A stretch of DNA of 58,554 nucleotides from sequence record PV596763.1; one strand, given 5' to 3'. The position numbers and the translations under genes are program-made. Shown here piece by piece: positions 1,416-31,386 of the stretch; the stretch's first letter is position 1, and each line of letters begins with the position of its first letter. The stretch is from Pseudomonas phage E21. The notes below the pieces were generated by a model. The model had not been told where the DNA came from. It made no database searches and saw nothing but the letters and a program-made list of their open reading frames with translations.

Positions 1416-3491
1416 CTATCCTAATAGTTCACCTAAACGGCTAAAGTCTAACATCGGTCGAGGTTGAAAGGCGAATGGTTTTTCTTCCTCGGGTTCCCTG
1501 ACCATCGTATTATTATCCCATTCCTCCGCCCACGTTGGGGGGTTGTCCCAATTTATCGACTCTACTCGTAATAACTCAGGAGACGTACAAAGGCCCAAAC
1601 AGTAGTAGCTTAAGTCCCATGCTTCGTTTCGGGCTTGCGCTAAATTTTCCCAACCTTTTGCGGTTCTCGTTTCGGCGCATAGCTCTGAGAAAAATTCGTC
1701 CGGCAATTCCCTCGTCATATTATAATAGCCCTTGTGAGGCTCAATACAATCTAGTCGACCGTTTAATGCGTCTTTCAACAAGTTAGAGTTTAAGAATAAT
1801 ACCGGGATTTCTCCTCTAGCTGCATTCTTATCGTTTTTCCGGTTAGAGTCCGGATAGCTAATGCGGGTTCTCGGGTCTGTTACTCGTGTGCCACCTTTTA
1901 ATAAGATGAAGCGAGCATGTTTATTCTTTGTCTTCAAATATCGATAGAACGCGTATGCCATGCCGGTTACGCCAGATTTACCCCCGGAGTCACAACCGGT
2001 CATCTTAATTGACATCATTCTACCGCTACCGTCTGACAGCGGATACTCTTTATCTATTACCTGTTTTTCGATTAGTTTCCAGTCTTCTTCGTATGTCGCC
2101 GGCTGTAAGATCATTGCGTCGCCGTCTTCGTCCTTACGCTCCGACTTATTGATGAAAAACCGGTCGATAACATGTGTGTCATACGGTGAACCCGGGGAAA
2201 TACCGAACACCTGTACTACGAAGCTATTCAATTGAACGTCTATCGTTGCTACGAGGAAACGAACGTCATTCGGAACCATGCCTAGCGGGTAATCTGATGA
2301 CCGGCTTTTCAGTGCTTCCGGTGCGCGGACTGACTCTAACGACTTAGGCTGATACGGCTCGCCCATGTTGTTATTCCAGAATTTCTTCAAGGCTTCTTCT
2401 GAGTAAGTCCGTTGATATTCGTCAAGAGCATCGAGGTAGATGTTTACCAGTTTTTGCCATGTTGTAAAGGCGGCTGCCGTACCACGGAGCCAATAAGAAA
2501 TGAAGTCGGTATGAGGGGCTTTACCCGTAAGTCTCCCGCTCTTATCAACTTTACAACCCTCCGGAACCCACACGCCGAATAAATTCATTTCAAAGCGTTC
2601 GTCGGGGTGGATCAAACAACCACATTCCGGGCATACCATTTGTACGGTTTCTGCTTTCTCTCGGTTTGATAGCTGTTTTCCGTTATCCCACGTTAAATGC
2701 TCGAATTTCCCCTCGAAATATTCGTCACAGTGAGGGCACGGCCATTGCCAACGTCGTCTATCGCCACGGTTGTAAAGCGCAATAATACCGGTACACGGCG
2801 GAGCCTCATGCGGTGACTTAGCTATCCAGTGCGGATCAAGAATCTCTCTCGACGGGGACGATTCGGCCATAGTCATAGCAAACGAACCAAAGGTTGTTGT
2901 ACGCTGTGTTGCCAAGTCGAAAGGATTACCATCACCGCCGATATCGTCGTCCATACGGTCAAAGTCGGTCATCAATATTCTTGGAACCGGTCGTCCGGCC
3001 AATTCGGTTACGGTCGGGTATGTAATAGTTAACATCATACCGGTAATGTATTGTTTATCGAATTTGTTATCGGTATCTCGACCTTTCAGTAATTGCTCAC
3101 CGATTAACGGGCTGTGTCGGTGAAGACGATCAATACGTCGCATAGAAAAGTCTCGGGCTGCTGCCATTGTCGGACAGAATACCATTGTATCCATCGGTGA
3201 GACTTTGATTGAGTATGACACGCCGTTGATAATTATCGCGTCGGTTTTACCTGACTGTGCCGGGCCTACAAACGCCATTTTGCTATGATTGCGAGAAGTT
3301 AATACGTCCATAGGTTCGACCATATACGGCGTAGTTGTATTCAACCACGGGCCTACATACGACCCGGGAGAATTTACATATCGATATTGAGATGCTGCAT
3401 TAGAAACGGTCAGCCTTTCCGGAGGTCGTAAGTTATCTGACATCTTGACCGCGATCTCAAAGAGATTTTTGTATTTAGCCATTCTTGCCAC
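1416..3491 (-). CDS. terminase large subunit, lambda gpA family
   Basis: 691 aa. Walker A FVGPAQSGKTD near the N-terminus. Overlaps the upstream small-subunit gene by 17 nt. Followed by W-like and portal genes. Confidence 0.85.
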   Translation of the reverse strand: MARMAKYKNLFEIAVKMSDNLRPPERLTVSNAASQYRYVNSPGSYVGPWLNTTTPYMVEPMDVLTSRNHSKMAFVGPAQSGKTDAIIINGVSYSIKVSPMDTMVFCPTMAAARDFSMRRIDRLHRHSPLIGEQLLKGRDTDNKFDKQYITGMMLTITYPTVTELAGRPVPRILMTDFDRMDDDIGGDGNPFDLATQRTTTFGSFAMTMAESSPSREILDPHWIAKSPHEAPPCTGIIALYNRGDRRRWQWPCPHCDEYFEGKFEHLTWDNGKQLSNREKAETVQMVCPECGCLIHPDERFEMNLFGVWVPEGCKVDKSGRLTGKAPHTDFISYWLRGTAAAFTTWQKLVNIYLDALDEYQRTYSEEALKKFWNNNMGEPYQPKSLESVRAPEALKSRSSDYPLGMVPNDVRFLVATIDVQLNSFVVQVFGISPGSPYDTHVIDRFFINKSERKDEDGDAMILQPATYEEDWKLIEKQVIDKEYPLSDGSGRMMSIKMTGCDSGGKSGVTGMAYAFYRYLKTKNKHARFILLKGGTRVTDPRTRISYPDSNRKNDKNAARGEIPVLFLNSNLLKDALNGRLDCIEPHKGYYNMTRELPDEFFSELCAETRTAKGWENLAQARNEAWDLSYYCLGLCTSPELLRVESINWDNPPTWAEEWDNNTMVREPEEEKPFAFQPRPMLDFSRLGELLG

Positions 3492-4059
3492 CTACGGTAC
3501 TCTCTTTGACTTCCGTCTTAGCCCGGTCTCCGAATGCGTCAACGAGTGTTTGCGCCATCTCATTTAGCGCGCCGTCTATCATCTCAGTAATGCGGGTTCT
3601 TTGATGATCGGTAAGGGTAGATTCACGCTCCAGTGAGTCCGTTACTAAGAGTAATGACATGCGTAAGTGTTTAAAAGACTCCGACATTAGCGCTTCTACT
3701 TGATCGGTAGGCCATAACTCACCCTCTCGTAGTTCGTAGTCCTGCTTAGCTTTCATGCCGTTCCAGAACTCTTTAGAAAGCATTTTAGGAAGCTCGTTAG
3801 GGTGCATTCGCTTTATGTAGGTTTCGACATCATACAGGGGCTTTACTAGGTATGGCGCCACTTCATTTAATTTGTAAATCGGATACCCGCCTCGTTCTCC
3901 GCAAGGAGGAACTTCTCGGATCTTGGGCGTAACGTCTCTACGCTCCATGTTAAATATCTTTGCGATCTGAGTGATGTTAACCCCGTCGAAGATCATCGAC
4001 TCGGATTCACGGTCTAGCTGATTGCTACGACGTCTCGTTGTTACCGGTGCCTTTGCCAT
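3475..4059 (-). CDS. terminase small subunit, Nu1-like (N-terminal HTH)
   Basis: 194 aa immediately upstream of and overlapping the large terminase. HTH-like ITQIAKIFNMERRDV followed by YPIYKLNEVAPYLV, reminiscent of the Nu1 N-terminal domain. Confidence 0.5.
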   Translation of the reverse strand: MAKAPVTTRRRSNQLDRESESMIFDGVNITQIAKIFNMERRDVTPKIREVPPCGERGGYPIYKLNEVAPYLVKPLYDVETYIKRMHPNELPKMLSKEFWNGMKAKQDYELREGELWPTDQVEALMSESFKHLRMSLLLVTDSLERESTLTDHQRTRITEMIDGALNEMAQTLVDAFGDRAKTEVKESTVGGKNG

Positions 4060-10790: not shown

Positions 10791-11075
10791 ATGAAAGAGA
10801 GTAATTTCCCATCGTGGGCGAAGAACAATAAAACGGGTCGACTTAAATTCATGATCCGGCATTTAGCCAGTTTCGCTTCGGAGGAGGGCCACCTAGTTTT
10901 CCTGTGCCGAGACGCTAAACTGTCGGTTCGTGGTGTCTCACAAGCAATCGACCGAGGAGAATTCACCTTTCAAATGGCGGATAAACTCGTTAAGGCTGCA
11001 AGCGTTGCTGGAAACCCGGACGTCACAGTTATGAACTTATTAAAACCTATGGAATCATTTAAAGAGGACAAATAA
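10791..11075 (+). CDS. hypothetical protein
   Basis: 94 aa. AAGGAG 10 nt upstream of ATG. Stop overlaps the primase start (TAATG). Confidence 0.45.
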   Translation: MKESNFPSWAKNNKTGRLKFMIRHLASFASEEGHLVFLCRDAKLSVRGVSQAIDRGEFTFQMADKLVKAASVAGNPDVTVMNLLKPMESFKEDK

Positions 11076-13750
11076 TGTCTAACGTTTTCAAATCTCGTGG
11101 CCCTGAACTTTTCGACAATGGATACGAAGTCGTACCTATTACTCGTATCGACGCAACTGACAGCAAAGGGAAATTATTGTCTGGCGCGGGTAAAGCCCCG
11201 GCGTTAAAAGGGTGGCAGAAAATAGAGATCACTTCTGACATCGTTAATGAATGGGCGACGGGTAGTCGCTCTCGCTGTGGTGTGGGTATTCGTACCCACC
11301 GTAACCCTGCTGTCGATATCGACTGTTTAGACGCCGAAGCGTCCGAACACATGACGGCTTTCGTTGAGTCGGAAGTGGGCTTTGCTCCTATCCGTGTTGG
11401 GCGTGAACCTAAAGCGCTACTTCTCTATTATACAGAACGTCCTTTCACAAAAGTAAAATCAACCATCTTCGTTGATGAAAACGGGAATGAAAACGCTGTC
11501 GAGATATTAGGAAGCGGGCAACAATTCGTTGCTTACGGTATCCACCCGGGAACTAAGAAACCGTATAAATGGGTTACTAAAGGCGAGTCGCCTGCGGAAA
11601 ACCAAGCGGATTTTGACCTAGAAGAAATAACACTAGAAGACGCGAGAAAAATTATTGCGGAATTCGACCGGTATGCGAAAGAGCGCGGTTGGAAACCTTT
11701 AAAAAGTAAAAGCGGTACGGTCATCAAGCCATCTATGGGTTACTACTTAGATGCTCCGGAAGAACTATCAGACTGGTCGGACGAGTCAGACTTTGACGAT
11801 GATGAAGACGATTGGGTCACTACTGATGATATCACCGATAAATGGGACGGGACTTACGAAGAACTTTACGAGATCTTCGAAAACGATATCGAGCCATCTT
11901 ACGATTATCATACTTGGATTCCTGTTCTGGCTGCACTTAAAGACGCCGAACGTGAGCCGGACGAGTTTAAAGAGATCGCGAGAATGTGGTCTGCTCGGGC
12001 CGAGGGGTCTTTCGATAATGATGCCTTTGAAGATAAATGGGAAAACGGTAATTTCAATCGTGTTGGTAAATACGCTAAGACATTACGAGGAGTAATTGCC
12101 GAAGCGGAAAAGATCCAAGGCGTTCGCGAAATTGAAGACGTAGTTATACCTTTATTCGAAAAAGCTACGGACTTGGCCGAGTGGACTTTAGCTGCCGACC
12201 GCCTACGTGAAACGTGGGCTTTCGGTTTAGAAAGAGAGACGGCCATAAACATTGCTTGCGAAAAGTATAAGAAAGTCACTAACGGGCTAAAACTGACGGA
12301 CGTTCAAAAGAAACGATATCTTAGTATCGATTACTCTCTTTTTGATGCGCCGGAGTGGTTAGCACCTTGGGTTTATTGTACTACGGATAACGAGTTTATT
12401 AACTTAGACAATAGAACCAGAATGAACCCTAAATCTTTCGCGAATGCCTATAACCGAGAAACTGTGAAGAAATTCGGGGTCGCTGCGGACGTTTTCGCCA
12501 CGGTTGAACGACCGGTTCCTGTTATCCACGATACGATGTATTACCCGTTGATGCACGGTGAGATGCCTAAGAACAAATGGAAGCGAGTTCCGGGTATTAA
12601 TGACAAGCGTGTTTTCGAATACAACGGTTTGACGTTCTTAAATACCTTTGACCATCGTTCCATGCCTGAGACAGCTACTAAAATTTCGACCGCCGGATAT
12701 AAGGCGATCGGGGAGGTAAAACGATACTTCGAAATACAGTATCCAGACCCGGACGAACGAAGACATGCGATGGACTGGATCGCGTGGGTTATCAACAACC
12801 CTGTTAGAAAGATTAACTATATGCTTCTCGTTCTTGGTGGTCAGGGTTCCGGTAAAACCATCGTTAAGAAATTTATGGAACACATGCTCGGTTCTGATAA
12901 CGTTTCTACGATTTCGAATAAGGTTATCCATGGTAATTTTACCGGGTGGCAGTCTGGCCACATGCTAAAAGTTATTGAGGAAATATCGGTGAGTGGTCAT
13001 CGCTACGACGTTATGAACTCATTGAAAGAGCCGATATCGAATGAAACGTTACAGATCGAAGCGAAGTACCGTGACCCGCGCCAGTGTGTGAATACTTCGT
13101 CGTATATGGCATTTACCAATGATGTTGGTGCTTTGCCTCTTACATCAAGTGACCGTCGCTTCTTGTTAGTTCGTAGTGCGTTCCAGCATAAGCGTGAAGT
13201 CACGGAATACCTACGGAAAGACCCTAATTACTTTAAACGGTTTGAGAAAGCCTTTACTAAACACGCACCGGAGATCCGCAAATGGTTTAGCGAGTGGGAG
13301 TATTCCGAGGGCTTCAAACACGATGGTAACGCTCCTGAAACGGTGAGTATGGGAAGCATGTCTTTAGCGTCAGAAGACGATTTCACCTCCGTAGTAATGG
13401 GGGCCGTAGATGATTGTGAGAAAGAGTTAGAATTTACATCGGGGATCACAGACGAAGTAATTTTCATTCCATCGGCAGTAGATTTAGTCCGAGATAGGTC
13501 TAAGGTTCCTAACGGGAAAATAATATATCGCATACTCGCTGAATATGGTTTCTTCCGGCCTGTGGATTCTCGTACACAAATAAGATTTAATGACGTAAGA
13601 GGACAAGTTGTTGTCGCGAATAGACATAAATGGCTCTATCCTGATGGGAGTGTCAACGTAGATAAGATTAAAGAGCATTTAGAGGAGAACGAACGCCGGG
13701 TAGAAGAACAAGAAAGCAAGAGAGAGTTAGAGGAAACTGACGTTTTCTAA
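11075..13750 (+). CDS. DNA primase/helicase (prim-pol-like N-terminal domain + D5/P4-type SF3 helicase)
   Basis: 891 aa. C-terminal Walker A LVLGGQGSGKT. N-terminal region typical of bifunctional primase-polymerase proteins. Size and architecture match phage/plasmid primase-helicases. Confidence 0.75.
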   Translation: MSNVFKSRGPELFDNGYEVVPITRIDATDSKGKLLSGAGKAPALKGWQKIEITSDIVNEWATGSRSRCGVGIRTHRNPAVDIDCLDAEASEHMTAFVESEVGFAPIRVGREPKALLLYYTERPFTKVKSTIFVDENGNENAVEILGSGQQFVAYGIHPGTKKPYKWVTKGESPAENQADFDLEEITLEDARKIIAEFDRYAKERGWKPLKSKSGTVIKPSMGYYLDAPEELSDWSDESDFDDDEDDWVTTDDITDKWDGTYEELYEIFENDIEPSYDYHTWIPVLAALKDAEREPDEFKEIARMWSARAEGSFDNDAFEDKWENGNFNRVGKYAKTLRGVIAEAEKIQGVREIEDVVIPLFEKATDLAEWTLAADRLRETWAFGLERETAINIACEKYKKVTNGLKLTDVQKKRYLSIDYSLFDAPEWLAPWVYCTTDNEFINLDNRTRMNPKSFANAYNRETVKKFGVAADVFATVERPVPVIHDTMYYPLMHGEMPKNKWKRVPGINDKRVFEYNGLTFLNTFDHRSMPETATKISTAGYKAIGEVKRYFEIQYPDPDERRHAMDWIAWVINNPVRKINYMLLVLGGQGSGKTIVKKFMEHMLGSDNVSTISNKVIHGNFTGWQSGHMLKVIEEISVSGHRYDVMNSLKEPISNETLQIEAKYRDPRQCVNTSSYMAFTNDVGALPLTSSDRRFLLVRSAFQHKREVTEYLRKDPNYFKRFEKAFTKHAPEIRKWFSEWEYSEGFKHDGNAPETVSMGSMSLASEDDFTSVVMGAVDDCEKELEFTSGITDEVIFIPSAVDLVRDRSKVPNGKIIYRILAEYGFFRPVDSRTQIRFNDVRGQVVVANRHKWLYPDGSVNVDKIKEHLEENERRVEEQESKRELEETDVF

Positions 13751-13774
13751 AATATCGCGATTTTCGGTTTAAAG

Positions 13775-13798
13775 AGGTCACATTACGTGGCCTTTTTT
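13775..13798 (+). terminator. rho-independent terminator after primase-helicase gene
   Basis: aggtcac-attac-gtggcct (7-bp stem, one G-U) followed by TTTTTT, 25 nt after the stop. Confidence 0.55.
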
Positions 13799-13805
13799 AT
13801 TGCCC

Positions 13806-13828
13806 GAAAAACGACGCTCCCGATCGGG
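13806..13828. repeat. direct repeat copy 1, AAAAAYGACGYTCCCGATCGG (contains 10-bp palindrome CCCGATCGGG with GATC)
   Basis: Second copy at 14786-14807. The two copies bracket most of the non-coding region. Confidence 0.6.
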
Positions 13829-13854
13829 AATGCACGTTTGGTCAAAAAATGAGC

Positions 13855-13871
13855 GTACAAAATTTATACAG
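13855..13871. repeat. palindromic site GTACAAAATTTATACAG (operator-like), copy 1
   Basis: Related sites at 13973-13991 (CTGTACAAATTTTATACAG, near-perfect inverted repeat) and 14077-14097. Confidence 0.5.
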
Positions 13872-13972
13872 AAAAACGTTCAATATTTAACCGATTTTCG
13901 GGTGATCGGATTTTTTGAGTGAATTTCCAATTTTTCATTTTTCCATTTTTTGGTCGAAAAACGCCGAAAATG

Positions 13973-14028
13973 CTGTACAAATTTTATACAGGGTTTTTTG
14001 ACACAAAGTGTGTCGGACATGTGTTCCG
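13973..14028. repeat. cluster of palindromes
   Basis: CTGTACAAATTTTATACAG (13973-13991), GACACAaagTGTGTC (14000-14014), CGGACATGTGTTCCG (14014-28). All read directly from the sequence. Confidence 0.55.
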
Positions 14029-14099
14029 ACGTGTGCGTGCCAGTTAACGTGTTGATTTCCTTAGAAACGCATTTTTTATACTGTACAAAAATCACCCAA

Positions 14100-14230
14100 C
14101 ACACATGATCGAATTACCTTTATATAGCTTATATATATATTTTTCTATTTTTCCTTTCCTATCTATTTTTTCTTTCTTCTGGAATTTCTATTTTATTACC
14201 TATTACTGTGTTTGCTGTGTCAGAAAGAAA
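14100..14230. other. AT-rich tract (possible DNA-unwinding element)
   Basis: tatatagcttatatatatatttttctatttttcctttcctatctattttttctttcttc. Lies within a 1.4-kb ORF-free region next to the primase gene. Confidence 0.35.
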
Positions 14231-14785
14231 GTAATATAGTAAAAACAATAACTTACCTTAGAACACTTATTGGAACATCAGCCGGCACAGCAATTTCCTG
14301 TGACACACCACCGACCATGGTAATACCTAAAACCGCGTATAACTGTTTGATATTGTTAGGGAATCTCCTAAAACGCCGGCCATTAGGGTAAACCCTCTCT
14401 CCTATTCCACTAGCTACGCTAGACCGGAAGTAAGTTAATCAAATCAATGGTTTACGACGAGGGGCTATGGCAGATCCCGGACAAATTTTAGGAAGACGGC
14501 TCTGCGCACCCCCGCCCAACCGGACAACTCGTCCAAGTACCTTTTTCGATTTAAAAGTGATTCTTCTCTGGAACGCACGGAGAGACGCGCACAGGCTTTA
14601 GCAATAGGGGGCATCACCTAACACCGCGATCGCCTCGCACAATCGCACACGCTTACGATTTGAAGCACATCTAACCCACAACACCGCCCACCCGAACACC
14701 CATACGCCGAAACATCACGAAAAGCGGTTATATTTGTAAAAACGTCGTGCGGTACAACCGCCCACCCGAACACCCGCACAAAACG

Positions 14786-14807
14786 TAAAAATGACGTTCC
14801 CGATCGG
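14786..14807. repeat. direct repeat copy 2, AAAAATGACGTTCCCGATCGG
   Basis: See copy 1 at 13806. Confidence 0.6.
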
Positions 14808-15159
14808 CGTGTTCACCCGAGACGCTATACCCCCGCTCAACGGATACGACCGACAAACTTAAAACCCCCTTTAAGTCGGAACAAATGTATCAACGAGAAT
14901 CGCCCTCAATCGAACCACGCGGGCATAACACATCGTAGGTAATACATCGGCATCACCTAGCGGGTAAAACACGCTGAGAACGCAACACATGGCTTTACGG
15001 CAATTTTCCATAGGGTGGGGGGAATGTGAGAGAGTGAGGGCTTGGGTTGGTGGTGTTGGGTGGGTTGGCGCTGGCGCGACCGCATGGATAGAACGACGGC
15101 CAAGAACGAGAAAAGCCCCGCACGAATGCGAGGCCTTGAGGGTGGGCTGTGTGGGACGG

Positions 15160-15399
15160 CTACCGGATTGTTAGGGCGACGCCTCCGGCGAACACCAAGA
15201 CCGCAACGCAAACCATGAAGACGATCATCAGGATAGCGCCGAGGGATTCGAGAACTAACGTAGTGCGGTGTAGACCGTCGAAACCGTGGTTTTGTATGGC
15301 GCGGAAAAAGAACGCGAGAATGTAAATCGAAATCAGACCGAAGAAACACACGGCGCCCACGTTGTACACACCGGAGAGTAGCATCTTGAGAATGCTCAT
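15160..15399 (-). CDS. small membrane protein (two predicted TM helices)
   Basis: Start revised to the ATG at 15399 (MSILKMLLSGVYNVGAVCFFGLISIYILAFFF...). That ATG overlaps the TGA of the upstream gene (ATGA coupling). The track's longer N-terminal extension is Arg-rich and unlikely. Confidence 0.45.
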   Translation of the reverse strand: MSILKMLLSGVYNVGAVCFFGLISIYILAFFFRAIQNHGFDGLHRTTLVLESLGAILMIVFMVCVAVLVFAGGVALTIR

Positions 15400-15974
15400 T
15401 TTCGACCGCCTCGTGCTTTTCGTTCTGCGATTATGTCTTTCTGGCAATAGTCGCTTAGTTTTTCCCAATCGTCGGGGATCTCGACGTAATCGCCACTTTC
15501 TAGGCGGGAAATCATCAACGACTCAGAAAAGTAAATCCGCTCATTGGTTCGCACGTTCACATACTCCGCAAACATTCCGCGAGGGTGTTCTGACCCATTA
15601 CGTCGCAACGTCGCACCCGTGTGAGCGATGGGGTCTTTACCATTTTTGACGTAGACTAGCGACGGAAACTTAAAGCGTCCTTCCAGATCCTGAGTTTGTT
15701 CGTCCTCCTCGAACTTCACGCCACAGAACGGGCAATAATTCATAAACACCGGAAAATCAGATTTTGTTACCGTCGAGTAGAGCGTCCCGTCAGGTCGACG
15801 TTCTTGATATTCCACGGTGAAGTCTAGAAAATATCGGGTTTTCAACTTTTTATTTTCAATAGCTAACACTTCTGTTTTCCACTCCGCCGAGTGTATTATT
15901 GCGCCGTTCGGCAACTTACCGGCCACCCGATCAGCCATCGATTTTTGAATACGATCGAAACAGTTACAACTCAT
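15396..15974 (-). CDS. hypothetical Cys-containing (putative Zn-binding) protein
   Basis: 192 aa. C3/C5 near the N-terminus and a CPFC pair. Confidence 0.45.
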   Translation of the reverse strand: MSCNCFDRIQKSMADRVAGKLPNGAIIHSAEWKTEVLAIENKKLKTRYFLDFTVEYQERRPDGTLYSTVTKSDFPVFMNYCPFCGVKFEEDEQTQDLEGRFKFPSLVYVKNGKDPIAHTGATLRRNGSEHPRGMFAEYVNVRTNERIYFSESLMISRLESGDYVEIPDDWEKLSDYCQKDIIAERKARGGRK

Positions 15975-17892: not shown

Positions 17893-18114
17893 TTACCGTG
17901 TGAGCATCGTAACCACGGAATTTTTAACCATTTCCAATGAATCCCCGCCAAGGCTCACACCTTGCCCGCAGAAAGTCCACGGCTTGAGGTGGTGGGGCGT
18001 CTTGGCAATCGTCCCGATCCACACCCCACCCGCAACAACGTAATAAATATTTTCGCCTCGCTCTTGATAAATCTCGATCGTCTTATCCATGGTTGGATTA
18101 TTTACCGGCTTCAT
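17893..18114 (-). CDS. hypothetical protein
   Basis: 73 aa. Overlaps the downstream gene by 17 nt. Confidence 0.35.
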   Translation of the reverse strand: MKPVNNPTMDKTIEIYQERGENIYYVVAGGVWIGTIAKTPHHLKPWTFCGQGVSLGGDSLEMVKNSVVTMLTR

Positions 18115-18748
18115 TTTCTACCCCTTTAATTTTAACTAGCTCTTGTTTGTACTCGGAGCCGAGCACATAATTTTTATTTTCTTCCTTTGGATAAGGCAAC
18201 ACCGGATATCGAAGCAACTTTTTATATTTCTTCACGACCGAACGGCTCCCCGTAAAATAAACGTAACGATGCTTAGATGTTCTAACTTGTCGGTAAGTCT
18301 TGCTTTCCTTCCCTTGATAATGCCGAGAGTGTTTACCTTGTCCCGTGTATTTATCGGTGCGCGCTTTCGTCGCCCCCGTGTAGATGAAATTAGACGCTTG
18401 ATAAATATATCCGTTGTGGTTCATACCGCGATCCGCATACGACACAATGACAAGGTTTTCACTTTTCAACTCAGCCATAGCGAACGCGATCAATCGGGAC
18501 GGCGCATTACGGATCGGACGAGTAAAACAAAGACGGTTTAGCTCAAAAACTTTGCTTTTGTACTCCTCGCCCAATATTCCAACGCATAGCGGATTACTCG
18601 CCGGCTTGCCGATAGTTAGAACTCCGACAAGCTCCTCGTCTTCGAAGAAACCGAAAGCGTAAGAGATGCTAGGGCGCCGTTTCGCATAATGGTAGTTTAA
18701 GATTATGTCTAAACAATCTTTAGGATCGATACGCCTCATAGAATACAT
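18098..18748 (-). CDS. hypothetical protein; candidate acyltransferase-like nucleic-acid-modifying enzyme (very tentative)
   Basis: 216 aa. Conserved-looking block LVIVSYADRGMNHNGYIYQASNFIYTG. The family was not recognised with confidence. Confidence 0.45.
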   Translation of the reverse strand: MYSMRRIDPKDCLDIILNYHYAKRRPSISYAFGFFEDEELVGVLTIGKPASNPLCVGILGEEYKSKVFELNRLCFTRPIRNAPSRLIAFAMAELKSENLVIVSYADRGMNHNGYIYQASNFIYTGATKARTDKYTGQGKHSRHYQGKESKTYRQVRTSKHRYVYFTGSRSVVKKYKKLLRYPVLPYPKEENKNYVLGSEYKQELVKIKGVENEAGK

Positions 18749-21477: not shown

Positions 21478-21649
21478 AACTTTTCACCTCTCGATGTGTA
21501 ACCGTTCGATTATATGAAATGTTACGAGTTAACATAAAGCGCATATCCCACGCTGGACAGAATAGCGAACCGTCTGCGTTGACCGTAACTTTTTCGTCGT
21601 CAGCGATTAAAATCATACCGCTGTTTAATGTGATTTTATTCTTCATCAT
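21458..21649 (-). CDS. hypothetical small protein
   Basis: Likely starts at ATGATG (21649), overlapping the upstream stop. 63 aa. Confidence 0.35.
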   Translation of the reverse strand: MMKNKITLNSGMILIADDEKVTVNADGSLFCPAWDMRFMLTRNISYNRTVTHREVKSFERLYS

Positions 21650-21878
21650 TACCGCCCCCACGTATCGCAGATATAAACGCCTCCCCGCTCTCCTGATCAG
21701 GCCACGCAATCCCGCCGACCACCCCAAACGCTACCCCATAAAGACAGAAACGCGCGACGGTTAGATCACCATATACGGCCAAAGTTCCCACCGCCCCCGC
21801 GAACCCTACCGCACAAAGAGACGCGACGACAAAACCAAACGCCCCGCGAGCCTCTAAATTATTTAATTTCTTAGCCAT
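21636..21878 (-). CDS. small membrane protein
   Basis: 80 aa, with two hydrophobic G/A-rich helices. Confidence 0.4.
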   Translation of the reverse strand: MAKKLNNLEARGAFGFVVASLCAVGFAGAVGTLAVYGDLTVARFCLYGVAFGVVGGIAWPDQESGEAFISAIRGGGNDEE

Positions 21879-28172: not shown

Positions 28173-28909
28173 TGACCAACCCATACGCGGTGGAATTACA
28201 GAAATTAAAAGACGCCAAGAAACACATTCCAAAGCAGATAAAAGACCAATGGCGCACACCAGATTGGCTTTTCTATGCGCTAAACTCTTTATACGGCCCG
28301 TTCTTGGTAGATTTGTTTTCTGACGGACAGAACGCTAAGTGCTCTCGGTATTTTATGGCCGAGGATAACGCGCTACAACAGAACTGGAAAGAAGCACTAG
28401 AAGACGCAAAGTTTGAATTCCTCATCGATGCGGACTGTGCGGGTTACGATGCTACTGACGATCTAAAGACGGCCAAGTGTTTTGCTAATCCGCCATACAG
28501 CCCGGCTAAGTATATCGGCAAAGGGCGTAAGAATAGAATTGCGCTCTGCGGTATGAGAAACATCATGGCTAAGGCTTACGAGGAACACAAGGCCGGCTGT
28601 CCGTCATTCTGGTTGCTTAAATCTGCTACATCAGAAGATTGGTGGCCAAATGAGACCGCGAGCCAGATAATCCACATTAAGGGTCGAATCGCTTTCGAAA
28701 AGCCGGTGTGGTTTAGAGATGAGGTCGTAGACCGAGTGGAAAGTAGTGCTGCTTTCGGTGCGTCAGTCGCCATCTTCAACGGCATAAACGATATTCAAGA
28801 GCCGGAAGCCTACATAAGTCGAGACACACTAAAATTAATAGGGGAGCCACTAGCTGAAATCAATGCGGAAAGACGCGCGGAGTGGATAGCCAGTTTCGAC
28901 GATCTATAA
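28169..28909 (+). CDS. DNA N6-adenine methyltransferase, phage Dam family (PF05869-type)
   Basis: 246 aa. N-terminal KDQWRTPDWLFYALNSLYGPFLVDLFS and catalytic CFANPPYS (NPPY motif IV). Confidence 0.75.
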   Translation: MMTNPYAVELQKLKDAKKHIPKQIKDQWRTPDWLFYALNSLYGPFLVDLFSDGQNAKCSRYFMAEDNALQQNWKEALEDAKFEFLIDADCAGYDATDDLKTAKCFANPPYSPAKYIGKGRKNRIALCGMRNIMAKAYEEHKAGCPSFWLLKSATSEDWWPNETASQIIHIKGRIAFEKPVWFRDEVVDRVESSAAFGASVAIFNGINDIQEPEAYISRDTLKLIGEPLAEINAERRAEWIASFDDL

Positions 28910-29150
28910 TTTAAGGGGGCCGTATGGCCTCCCTATTAAAAGGTAAATCCCGTGAAAATTCTAAAGTATACATTGCTTGTGTTGATTGTGATTTCTGCGG
29001 TTGTCGGCTCATACATGGCAATACGATCAACCTCATGCGCGGAGTATGGCCAGAAGAACAAAGTTGCGACCGAATACTCATTGTACGAGGGTTGTGTGAT
29101 AAAAAACTCCGGCCACCCGTAAAAAAGTTCACCTCAAGCGAGAAAAATAG

Positions 29151-30859: not shown

Positions 30860-31320
30860 AATTAGTATACATAGCCGGCCCGTACCGCGCAGACACCATA
30901 GAGGGTGTTGCTGAAAATATCCGTAAGGCACAAGTAATCGGGCTATCTCTAGCCACCAACGGACATAAATTAGGGGTATTCCCCGTGATCCCTCACATGA
31001 ATACGGCGCACTTTGAGACCCACACTTTAACCGTATCACAAAAATTCAGCGCTTTTATTGAGCCGGTGCCAGATGAATACTGGCTACAAGGAACAATGGC
31101 ATTGATGGAAAAATGCGATGCGGTTTTATTGACGCACCCACAAGCCGGCATAACAAGCAAGGGAACGCGGGCGGAGGTTATGCGCGCTATTGAGTTAGGT
31201 ATTCCTGTTTATGACCACATAAACGGCCTACTATCTGACCTTAGAGACGAATCAACGCCTCTACGAAGTATTAATGTTTTGAATGACAAGCGAGAATTTC
31301 TCGGGGCGGTTGATGAATGA
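30856..31320 (+). CDS. nucleoside 2-deoxyribosyltransferase-like protein (DUF4406-type)
   Basis: 154 aa. N-terminal KLVYIAGPY and C-terminal CDAVLL...SKGTRAEVMRAIELGIPVY, as in the Rcl/NDT-like fold. Confidence 0.5.
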   Translation: MKLVYIAGPYRADTIEGVAENIRKAQVIGLSLATNGHKLGVFPVIPHMNTAHFETHTLTVSQKFSAFIEPVPDEYWLQGTMALMEKCDAVLLTHPQAGITSKGTRAEVMRAIELGIPVYDHINGLLSDLRDESTPLRSINVLNDKREFLGAVDE

Positions 31321-31386
31321 TGTAGCGTATTTAATAGTCGTTGTGATGTGTGCCTTAGTTATAACACTAGGGCTACGGAAATAACT

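Follow-up and report, generated by a model that had tools for sequence, protein, structure and literature searches.

The window analyzed here is a 58,554-nt stretch of DNA, the sequence record PV596763.1 of Pseudomonas phage E21, and the subject of this study is a gene-free zone at positions 13751 to 15159 that contains an exact match to the cohesive end (cos) of phage chi. The zone extends from the stop codon of an 891-aa “primase” gene (11075 to 13750, plus strand) to the stop codon of a 79-aa gene on the minus strand (15160 to 15399). All coordinates are window positions, and offsets with a plus or minus sign are counted from cosN, the cohesive-end sequence, unless stated otherwise. A megablast search with positions 13400 to 15500 returned 27 phage records at 95 to 99% identity, almost all of them Proteus phages of the genus Lavrentievavirus. 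Judged by this similarity, the window is a Lavrentievavirus genome, that is, the genome of a chi-like siphovirus of the Casjensviridae.

Two convergent operons end at the borders of the zone, each in an intrinsic terminator. At its left border, the primase-helicase operon ends in a plus-strand terminator at 13771 to 13799, composed of an 11-bp hairpin (13771 to 13797) and a U-run. An earlier reading made from the sequence alone, without database searches (the sequence-only reading), had placed the primase terminator at the start of the region, and this hairpin, at −20 kcal/mol and z = −4.25, indeed has the lowest z-score in a sliding RNA scan. At the right border, a minus-strand terminator at 15112 to 15137, with an 11-bp stem, six GC pairs, and a U-run, ends the leftward operon. 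This second terminator is kept in Kokobel1, and chi has an equivalent.

The records of many relatives begin or end inside this region, and the group is chi-like. Phage chi has 12-nt 5′ cohesive ends, GGTGCGCAGAGC, which were mapped by primer extension (Hendrix et al. 2015, PMC4342425). The window contains a unique exact match to this 12-mer at 14499 to 14510 on the minus strand; by our arithmetic, an exact 12-mer is expected by chance about 0.007 times in 58.5 kb, counting both strands. Placed by this identity, the nicks would fall between 14498 and 14499 on the plus strand and between 14510 and 14511 on the minus strand. The match is part of an invariant 17-mer, GGCTCTGCGCACCCCCG (14498 to 14514), which is unchanged in all relatives compared. 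The termini of published records point to the same site. The end-curated records of the Proteus phages DanisaurMW, Inception, NotEvenPhaged, DoubleBarrel, and Jing313, which are 96 to 98% identical to the window, begin exactly at window position 14510 and read downward; the Saba record starts at the equivalent of 14499; and the record of Klebsiella phage Phraden ends at cosN with 48 identical bases. The ends of Siskin have been confirmed by Sanger run-off (PMC6498227), and for Jing313, cohesive ends with the chi sequence were predicted by PhageTerm, with “the same ends” in all six genomes (PMC9022528).

Gene order and assembly behavior are also as expected for a chi-like cos. Chi has its terminase genes at a distance of more than 10 kb from the left cos end, and the intervening DNA encodes the primase and polymerase (PMC4342425). 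In the window, the large terminase gene (TerL, 1416 to 3443), the small terminase gene (TerS, 3475 to 4059), and the primase gene are arranged in agreement with this published order, with cos between the primase and the right-end genes and TerS about 10.4 kb from it. The assembly of Isf-Pm1, a record declared circular, is missing the equivalent of 14409 to 14585 (about 177 bp across cos). A comparable loss of 171 bp at cos occurred in the first chi sequence, JX094499 (PMC4342425), and the Isf-Pm1 gap is typical of what is lost when cohesive ends are joined artificially.

Taken together, these observations indicate that 13751 to 15159 is very probably where the two chromosome ends of a chi-like cos phage meet, and that the assembly is circularly permuted. 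The apparent intergenic region would then be two chromosome ends joined by the assembler, with the termini inside the window; by convention, the left chromosome end starts at 14510 and continues toward lower coordinates, and the right end starts at 14511 and continues toward higher ones. A packaging site was among the roles that the sequence-only reading had listed for the region, and the location of cosN, about 10 kb from the terminase genes as published for chi, bears this out. The decisive element, the cohesive-end 12-mer, was missed in that reading, and the features it stressed are not the cos core, which lies conserved between them. The identity of cos had already been published for near-identical phages, so the region is real but ordinary in kind and largely expected. 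Compared with the cos of other Chivirus and Lavrentievavirus phages, it differs in nothing essential: the 12-mer is identical, about 10 kb separates it from the terminase genes, the flanking core blocks match, and cos lies in a gene-poor zone of 1.1 to 1.6 kb between the primase gene and the right-end genes. The Lavrentievaviruses differ in not having the chi gp1 helix-turn-helix (HTH) gene and in having repeat words of their own.

The terminase encoded in the window is compatible with such a site. TerL matches both GpA_ATPase (PF05876, E = 8e-67) and GpA_nuclease (PF20454, E = 4e-55), and a large terminase of this lambda gpA type would cut at cosN (14499 to 14510), leaving 12-nt 5′ overhangs of sequence GGTGCGCAGAGC. 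Two points weigh on the other side: the small terminase belongs to the DUF1441 family, not to Nu1, and the termini of this particular phage are placed by sequence identity with mapped relatives. A within-genus variant touches the nick itself. In ASh-2020a, pPM_01, and SD-12, three C's are missing at 14511 to 14513 (CACC|CCCGCCC becomes CACC|GCCC), which may be either a real polymorphism or a homopolymer or assembly artifact at the genome end.

The searchable literature reports only the 12-mer and describes no anatomy of flanking subsites. We compared the DNA around cosN across lineages. Beyond the genus, only about 14441 to 14640 is detectable with standard blastn (in Kokobelvirus, Chivirus, and Cenphatecvirus). 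Under permissive alignment, the window is collinear with Saba from −465 to +191 and with Kokobel1 from −308 to +588, at about 55 to 62% identity and with almost no net length change. Block alignments were made with five named phages and five genuine chi-like contigs from IMG/VR (L020, L023, L026, L028, and L029). The scan of IMG/VR for the 17-mer gave 12 matches, among which L021, L022, and L025 are chance matches in GC-rich coding DNA. We also rejected L024 (IMGVR_UViG_3300043399_000562) as a chi-like relative, as it shares little beyond the 17-mer. In this 61-kb viral contig, the 17-mer stands inside a larger palindrome, ATCGGGGCTCTGCGCACCCCCGATCGG, without the other core blocks, and the contig may represent a distant lineage sharing only cosN.

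The alignments revealed several short blocks at fixed distances from cosN. On the left, the GGGGCTAT block at 14461 to 14468 (read as ATAGCCCC at bp 43 to 50 of the left chromosome end) is kept in all chi-like lineages, and in Chivirus-type lineages it recurs as GGGGCTAAA beside a second, more distal site at −156 that is described below. On the right, AAGTACCTTTTT at 14535 to 14546 (AGGTACTT in the chi/lambda orientation), 25 to 34 bp from the nick, is likewise kept in all chi-like lineages, and ATTCTT at about 14560 is a further block kept across the chi-like alignments. Farther to the right, cross-genus alignment identified the block ACCTAACACCGCGATCGCCTCGC at 14616 to 14638 (+118 to +140), with the pattern ACCT.ACACC.CGATCGCC.CG. 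The related sequence GGCATCACCTAGC recurs at 14949 to 14961 and has a counterpart in Kokobel1. In the same arm, the word GGCATCACCTA(A/G)C occurs twice, at 14611 to 14623 (+112) and 14949 to 14961 (+450), with Kokobel1 counterparts at both offsets; the first copy belongs to the cross-genus conserved block.

The left arm is further distinguished by sites for integration host factor (IHF). The IHF consensus WATCAANNNNTTR has five exact matches in the whole genome, three of which lie in the 748-bp left arm, at 14045, 14340, and 14442, compared with 0.09 expected from shuffles of the arm (P = 0.0002). Pooled over eight lineages, left arms contain 13 such sites (0.28 expected) and right arms none. 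The site nearest cosN, AATCAATGGTTTA (14442 to 14454, plus strand), spans bp 57 to 69 from the left chromosome end, an I1-like position; the window, chi, Phraden, Kokobel1, L026, and L029 all match the consensus exactly at −57 to −60, and Saba and L020 match it with a single mismatch. The next, TATCAAACAGTTA (14340 to 14352, minus strand), lies about −157 from cosN and is the site beside which the GGGGCTAT block recurs in Chivirus-type lineages; exact matches at −155 to −159, on either strand, are found in the window, chi, Phraden, Kokobel1, L023, L026, and L028. The third, AATCAACACGTTA (14045 to 14057, minus strand), is distal, to the left of an AT-rich tract, and this site at −441 to −454 is common to the window and Kokobel1 (−441 in Kokobel1). 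Since the strand of an IHF site can flip between lineages while the consensus is kept, the consensus appears to be maintained and not simply inherited. A small palindrome, CTAGC-TAC-GCTAG (14410 to 14422), lies between the two sites closest to cosN, and its symmetry is kept across lineages while its arms change (CTCCC TAC GGGAG in chi, TGCCC TAC GGGCA in L023 and L026, and AAGC TAT GCTT in L020). A counterpart to this palindrome is absent in Saba and Kokobel1.

The ends of phage lambda were compared with the window in the lambda/chi orientation. The right chromosome end carries AGGTACT at −32 to −26 from the nick, and lambda has GGGTCCT at −30 to −24, with five of seven positions identical; we take this lambda position to be cosQ. 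On the left, the AAAATTT tract falls in the interval equivalent to I2. In lambda and N15, R3 lies at about bp 48 to 59 (PMC4669245), and I1 of lambda lies at bp 65 to 90 (PMC4669245, PMC4856287). By position, the GGGGCTAT block is an R3-like candidate for a small-terminase site. The likeness to lambda cos comprises a gpA-family large terminase with a 12-nt 5′ overhang, a short conserved element about 25 to 30 bp outside the nick on one side, and, on the other side, a block at about bp 43 to 50 followed by an IHF-consensus site at bp 57 to 69, with an A/T tract between cosN and the bp 43 to 50 block. By this analogy, the subsite layout probably follows that of lambda, with a cosB-like region on the left side of the window and a cosQ-like element on the right.

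In such a layout, the cosB-like assembly region would occupy about 14330 to 14470 in the conventional left end, which contains the GGGGCTAT block and a pair of IHF bending sites; there, IHF and the small terminase (DUF1441) would assemble the initiation complex. Packaging would run toward lower coordinates, first through the primase, polymerase, and terminase genes and then through the structural genes, and the cosQ-like AAGTACCTTTTT at 14535 to 14546 would be read when the motor reaches the next cos. The two systems also differ in several respects. The end sequences are unrelated: the cohesive-end 12-mer matches that of lambda at 4 of 12 positions in the same orientation and at 6 of 12 against the reverse complement. 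Here the small terminase is of the DUF1441 family, the second IHF site lies about 100 bp farther out, cos lies about 10.4 kb from TerS instead of adjoining the terminase genes, and the conserved and repeated DNA covers about 1.4 kb, compared with about 200 bp in lambda. Several observations argue against the lambda-like assignment of the two sides. A lambda-style R3/R2/R1 triplet with an inverted R2 is not present beside cosN; the likeness of the right-hand element to cosQ depends on a match of only 5/7; the longer direct repeats sit in the right arm, not the left; and cross-genus conservation reaches +140 rightward, farther than on the left.

These last observations raise an alternative in which the right-arm repeats and the +118 to +140 block are extra terminase or packaging sites, either as the true cosB, with packaging running rightward, or as orientation-specific signals for a motor nearing the terminal cos. 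Besides the conservation out to +140, direct repeats are found in the right arms of most lineages (all but L026) and are strictly unidirectional where present, and a 74% copy of a C-rich right-arm repeat abuts cosN. Yet every IHF-consensus site and the R3-positioned GGGGCTAT block are on the left, the cosQ-like heptamer is on the right, and the order of the terminase and head genes fits the opposite packaging direction. We therefore consider packaging sites in the right arm unlikely and favor the arrangement with a cosB-like region on the left.

We found no gene or structured RNA in the zone. As the sequence-only reading had stated, the region is free of substantial open reading frames (ORFs): only short ones of at most 74 aa are present, and none of them shows cross-genus conservation beyond the cos core. 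Annotators of related phages have been inconsistent here, calling between 0 and 12 small ORFs, some of 30 to 75 aa; the SD-12 record, for example, has 9 to 12 phantom ORFs annotated in the cos zone. Such calls, together with a net length that is well kept against Kokobel1 and Saba at about 55 to 62% identity, are what speaks for an overlooked small gene or structured noncoding RNA. However, cross-genus ORF “matches” are confined to the cos core, where they occur in several frames and on both strands. Substitutions are spread evenly over codon positions (116/119/120 against Kokobel1 and 91/97/94 against Saba), with no codon periodicity, and gaps relative to these two phages do not come in multiples of 3. 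Two minus-strand ORFs, of 74 and 38 aa, were rejected as genes because they are not conserved, and a tblastn search for the chi gp1 HTH protein gave no match in the window. For RNA, a search of the zone against Rfam returned no family at the gathering threshold or even at E ≤ 1, no tRNA or transfer-messenger RNA was detected in it, and the sliding z-score scan showed no unusually stable fold except the two terminators. An overlooked gene or RNA, which the sequence-only reading had kept in view and for which it had suggested a structured-RNA search, is thus extremely improbable.

Several palindromes and repeats had been described as operator-like sites in the sequence-only reading, and these proved to be of uneven quality. 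The perfect 6-bp inverted repeat GACACAaagTGTGTC is present at 14000 to 14014 as described. The near-palindrome CTGTACAAATTTTATACAG, said to occur three times, has one exact copy, at 13973 to 13991, which is itself palindromic at 16 of 19 positions; the other two prove to be a version with three mismatches at 13853 to 13871 (GCGTACAAAATTTATACAG) and a 76% partial copy at 14078 to 14094. CGGACATGTGTTCCG, at 14014 to 14028, has only 4-bp arms and is self-complementary at 8 of 15 positions, and so is not a near-perfect palindrome. The direct repeat reported at both edges of the region does occur at both, as AAAAAYGACGYTCCCGATCGG on the plus strand at 13807 to 13827 and 14787 to 14807 and nowhere else in the genome, but it is 21 nt rather than 22 nt long, the copies agree at 19 of 21 positions, and the second reads CCCGATCGGC, without the GGG ending.

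The two near-palindromes at 13853 to 13871 and 13973 to 13991, which lie in a T-tract-rich segment and are unique to the zone, could in principle be operators for a small phage DNA-binding regulator. Their near-dyad symmetry fits such a role, and in chi the gp1 HTH gene is directly preceded by similar palindromes with a ACAAATTTGT core, two ATAACAAATTTGTTAT palindromes at an equivalent offset (palindromes and gene lie within 538 to 592 and 614 to 901 of the chi record). Phraden likewise has a left-arm gp1 HTH gene preceded by two ATAACAAATTTGTTAT-type palindromes, and in Lavrentievaviruses, palindromes with a ACAAATTT core are found at a comparable offset without a gp1 gene. In Kokobel1, an inverted pair, CTGTACAAAAA and TTTTTGTAC, stands at offsets resembling those of the near-palindromes. 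Against regulation, the genome of the window has no gp1 homolog, the motif is found nowhere else in it, not even in the divergent promoter regions, the DNA between the two terminators offers no gene to regulate, and the zone contains no sigma-70-like promoter (0 compared with 3.2 expected). Operators are accordingly improbable, and the near-palindromes are better regarded as candidate accessory origin or architectural sites within the left chromosome end.

The distal left arm, from about 13990 to 14310, has features that are suggestive of a replication origin, a role that would co-reside with cos and not replace it. The sequence-only reading had noted an AT-rich tract and proposed an origin next to the primase gene. 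The tract, at 14118 to 14237 with a GC content of 0.225, is rich in T-tracts and forms the weakest 120-bp duplex in the 58.5-kb genome (−130.5 kcal/mol compared with a mean of −165.5 and a standard deviation [sd] of 7.2, or about 4.9 sd), making it a candidate DNA-unwinding element or a segment of bent DNA. All the chi-like lineages examined have an AT-rich dip near −400, and IHF sites bracket the tract. The gene directly upstream, at whose stop codon the zone starts, encodes a fusion of Prim-Pol, PriCT_2, and DUF5906 (a D5/SF3-type helicase) domains. In a PDB sequence search, its helicase part matches the NrS-1 phage primase-helicase, and only the helicase core matched.

This arrangement resembles the origins of phage-inducible chromosomal islands (PICI) and Staphylococcus aureus pathogenicity islands (SaPI). 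In these elements, ori lies immediately 3′ of rep or pri-rep, and two sets of iterons flank an AT-rich melting site; the iterons are 5 to 6 nt long, number 6 to 12 in all, occur in opposite orientations, and are read by a C-terminal winged helix (PMC9371898, PMC6092414). The window shares with them a site directly downstream of a fused primase-helicase gene, whose product is a candidate initiator by this analogy, and a central AT-rich tract that is the weakest duplex of the genome. By analogy with PICI/SaPI Rep and PriRep, the Prim-Pol/SF3-helicase would bind repeats flanking the AT tract, melt the tract, and load itself. The candidate iterons in the window are copies of GACACA/TGTGTC on either side of the AT center: the inverted pair GACACA aag TGTGTC at 14000 to 14014 and further copies at 14216 to 14221 and 14302 to 14307. 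The four copies, compared with 0.09 per 340 nt elsewhere in the genome, are divided two and two around the AT center at 14112 to 14171.

The relatives share with PICI/SaPI origins the two-sided arrays of 6-nt repeats. Between −520 and −180, each relative has a lineage-specific hexamer in both orientations and on both sides of the AT center, with 5 to 9 copies: GTTACA in chi (9), TTACAA, overlapping CTTGTA, in L026 (8), AACTGT in L029 (8), GTGACA in L020 (7), and GGCACA in Saba (5). Measured against local shuffles, the hexamers are significant in 8 of 10 lineages (chi, Phraden, Saba, L020, L023, L026, L028, and L029), with P values from <0.001 to 0.02. The last 90 residues of the primase are its most divergent segment in all comparisons, which fits a specificity domain, although relaxed constraint would give the same pattern.

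A number of results weigh against an origin in this arm. In the window itself, the GACACA repeat is not significant against local shuffles (P = 0.23), nor is the hexamer repeat of Kokobel1, and a test of 8-mers allowing one mismatch picked T-tract words rather than GACACA (T-tract family, 10 sites, P < 0.005). The helicase is of the Prim-Pol/D5 type and has no detectable sequence match to solved SaPI Reps, a protein database search with the primase C-terminal domain returned no homologs, and a single-sequence AlphaFold model of that segment had a predicted local distance difference test (pLDDT) score of 44, which is unusable, so that no DNA-binding fold can be demonstrated for it. In chi, the gp1 gene sits between the primase gene and the repeats. 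The zone contains no DnaA boxes. We rejected GC skew, which had been proposed as a check, as an origin marker, as the cumulative skew merely follows gene orientation and is uninformative. No experimental origin mapping for chi-like phages was found in the searchable literature, and AT-rich bent DNA with IHF sites, which are not part of the PICI/SaPI arrangement, could equally be packaging architecture. On balance, an origin beside the primase gene is quite possible, favored by the duplex minimum and the arrays of the relatives, though we lean slightly against it because of the few, nonsignificant repeats in the window; any origin role is putative. RecBCD Chi sites, of which the genome has two (5767 and 54228), do not occur in the zone.

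The right arm is marked by extremes of strand composition, as the sequence-only reading had noticed. The segment at 14670 to 14869 has the second-lowest GC skew of the genome (G 0.16, C 0.37) and that at 14977 to 15176 has the highest; the latter includes a block at 15008 to 15075 that is G-rich on the plus strand, and C-rich on the leftward RNA, just inside the leftward-operon terminator. In every lineage, the DNA to the right of cosN is A+C-rich and G-poor on the plus strand as far as about +400, and a G-rich turn follows from about +400 or +500 in Saba, Kokobel1, L020, L023, L026, and L028, whose right arms extend far enough for it. Skew at a given offset therefore has the same sign across genera, even though the sequences cannot be aligned by blastn. 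The segment at 15047 to 15087 is 78% identical to Saba. Within the genus, the length of the G run at 15017 to 15022 varies, and P2-71 and pPM_01 have a 39-nt insertion, CGTGACGGTTGCGTGAGAGAACGGCGAGGCCATAGAACG, at about 15108, just inside the leftward-operon terminator. Four G-quadruplex-type motifs (loops of at most 12 nt) are found in the genome, two of them in this arm, at 15038 to 15064 (plus strand) and 14675 to 14701 (minus strand). We rejected a G-quadruplex role for the G block, since the equivalent segment of Saba is GT-rich but has no G runs; the motif is probably a by-product of the skew.

Direct repeats are the second feature of this arm. ACCGCCCACCCGAACACCC occurs in two exact same-strand copies at 14683 to 14701 and 14757 to 14775 (plus strand), within the A+C-rich, G-poor stretch, and the 74% copy that abuts cosN lies at 14511 to 14529. 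The word CCGCCCACCCGAACACCC, reported earlier to occur twice, does so exactly (14684 and 14758) and nowhere else in the genome. Saba and Kokobel1 also have words of the CCCGATC(C/G)G type in their right arms. Most lineages examined (not L026) have direct repeats of their own at +120 to +500, on the same strand only, and no inverted copies of these repeats were found in the lineages examined. The layout of the right arm at 14640 to 15100 is thus conserved, and our leading guesses for its function are backup Rho termination or packaging-termination signals.

The first of these, which the sequence-only reading had also offered, holds that the skewed blocks are Rho utilization (rut) regions that back up the intrinsic terminators and keep transcription out of the opposite operon. 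Rightward read-through RNA would be C-rich and G-poor over 14511 to 14990, and leftward RNA C-rich over 15075 to 15008. As in known Rho-dependent terminators, the RNA entering from either side contains long tracts, above the roughly 80 nt required, with C exceeding G that are weakly structured (the plus-strand C-rich RNA has a minimum free energy of −13 to −19 kcal/mol per 120 nt at 14581 to 14700). The skew extremes of the genome are located here, and their sign is kept between genera that cannot be aligned, suggesting selection on composition rather than sequence. Here, however, the tracts lie downstream of good intrinsic terminators, which already end both operons strongly, a rightward rut would act only after the transcript had crossed the putative origin and cos, and exact lineage-specific direct repeats are unexpected for a signal of composition only. 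The putative Rho role is therefore tentative and, in our view, rather doubtful.

We also considered whether the whole zone could be a composite “ori-cos” control region, found across the Casjensviridae, in which replication initiation, packaging initiation, and packaging termination are grouped around one site. In this scheme, the approximately 500 bp of skewed DNA with unidirectional repeats, opposite the origin and cosB-like side, would be an orientation-specific signal that slows or terminates the packaging motor or protects the last-packaged, first-injected end. As a complete scheme this is speculative and has little probability.

The position of cos fixes where the genome should be opened, and recognizing the zone as two chromosome ends prevents spurious ORF calls, as several public records annotate 3 to 12 phantom genes there. 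It also explains the losses of about 170 to 180 bp at this zone in some assemblies. The one-sided IHF sites at fixed offsets, the cosQ-like block, the possible PICI-like origin, and the layout-conserved right arm are absent from the searchable literature. If confirmed, they would provide a defined minimal cos and ori for cosmid and vector engineering in chi-like phages, which serve in phage therapy and in work on flagellotropic phages, as well as a second, lambda-independent system for studying recognition by gpA-type terminases.

Some further observations concern the records and genes around the zone. Enterococcus phage AS-M1_NWU, Staphylococcus phage SVV09-A, and Salmonella phages SD-11 to SD-14 are 96 to 98% identical to Proteus Lavrentievaviruses, and their host labels look doubtful, from contamination or misassignment. 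The strongest A+C richness of the genome (0.72) and its lowest GC skew (−0.43) occur at 21641 to 21846, inside a small minus-strand gene (the equivalent of E21 gp22), whose coding strand is therefore extremely G+T-rich. Lastly, the E21 annotation lists a Mom-like DNA-modification protein (18104 to 18745), a PAPS reductase (28177 to 28914), and a nucleoside 2-deoxyribosyltransferase (30861 to 31325). These genes hint at modified DNA bases in this phage group, which, if true, could affect recognition by terminase or IHF.

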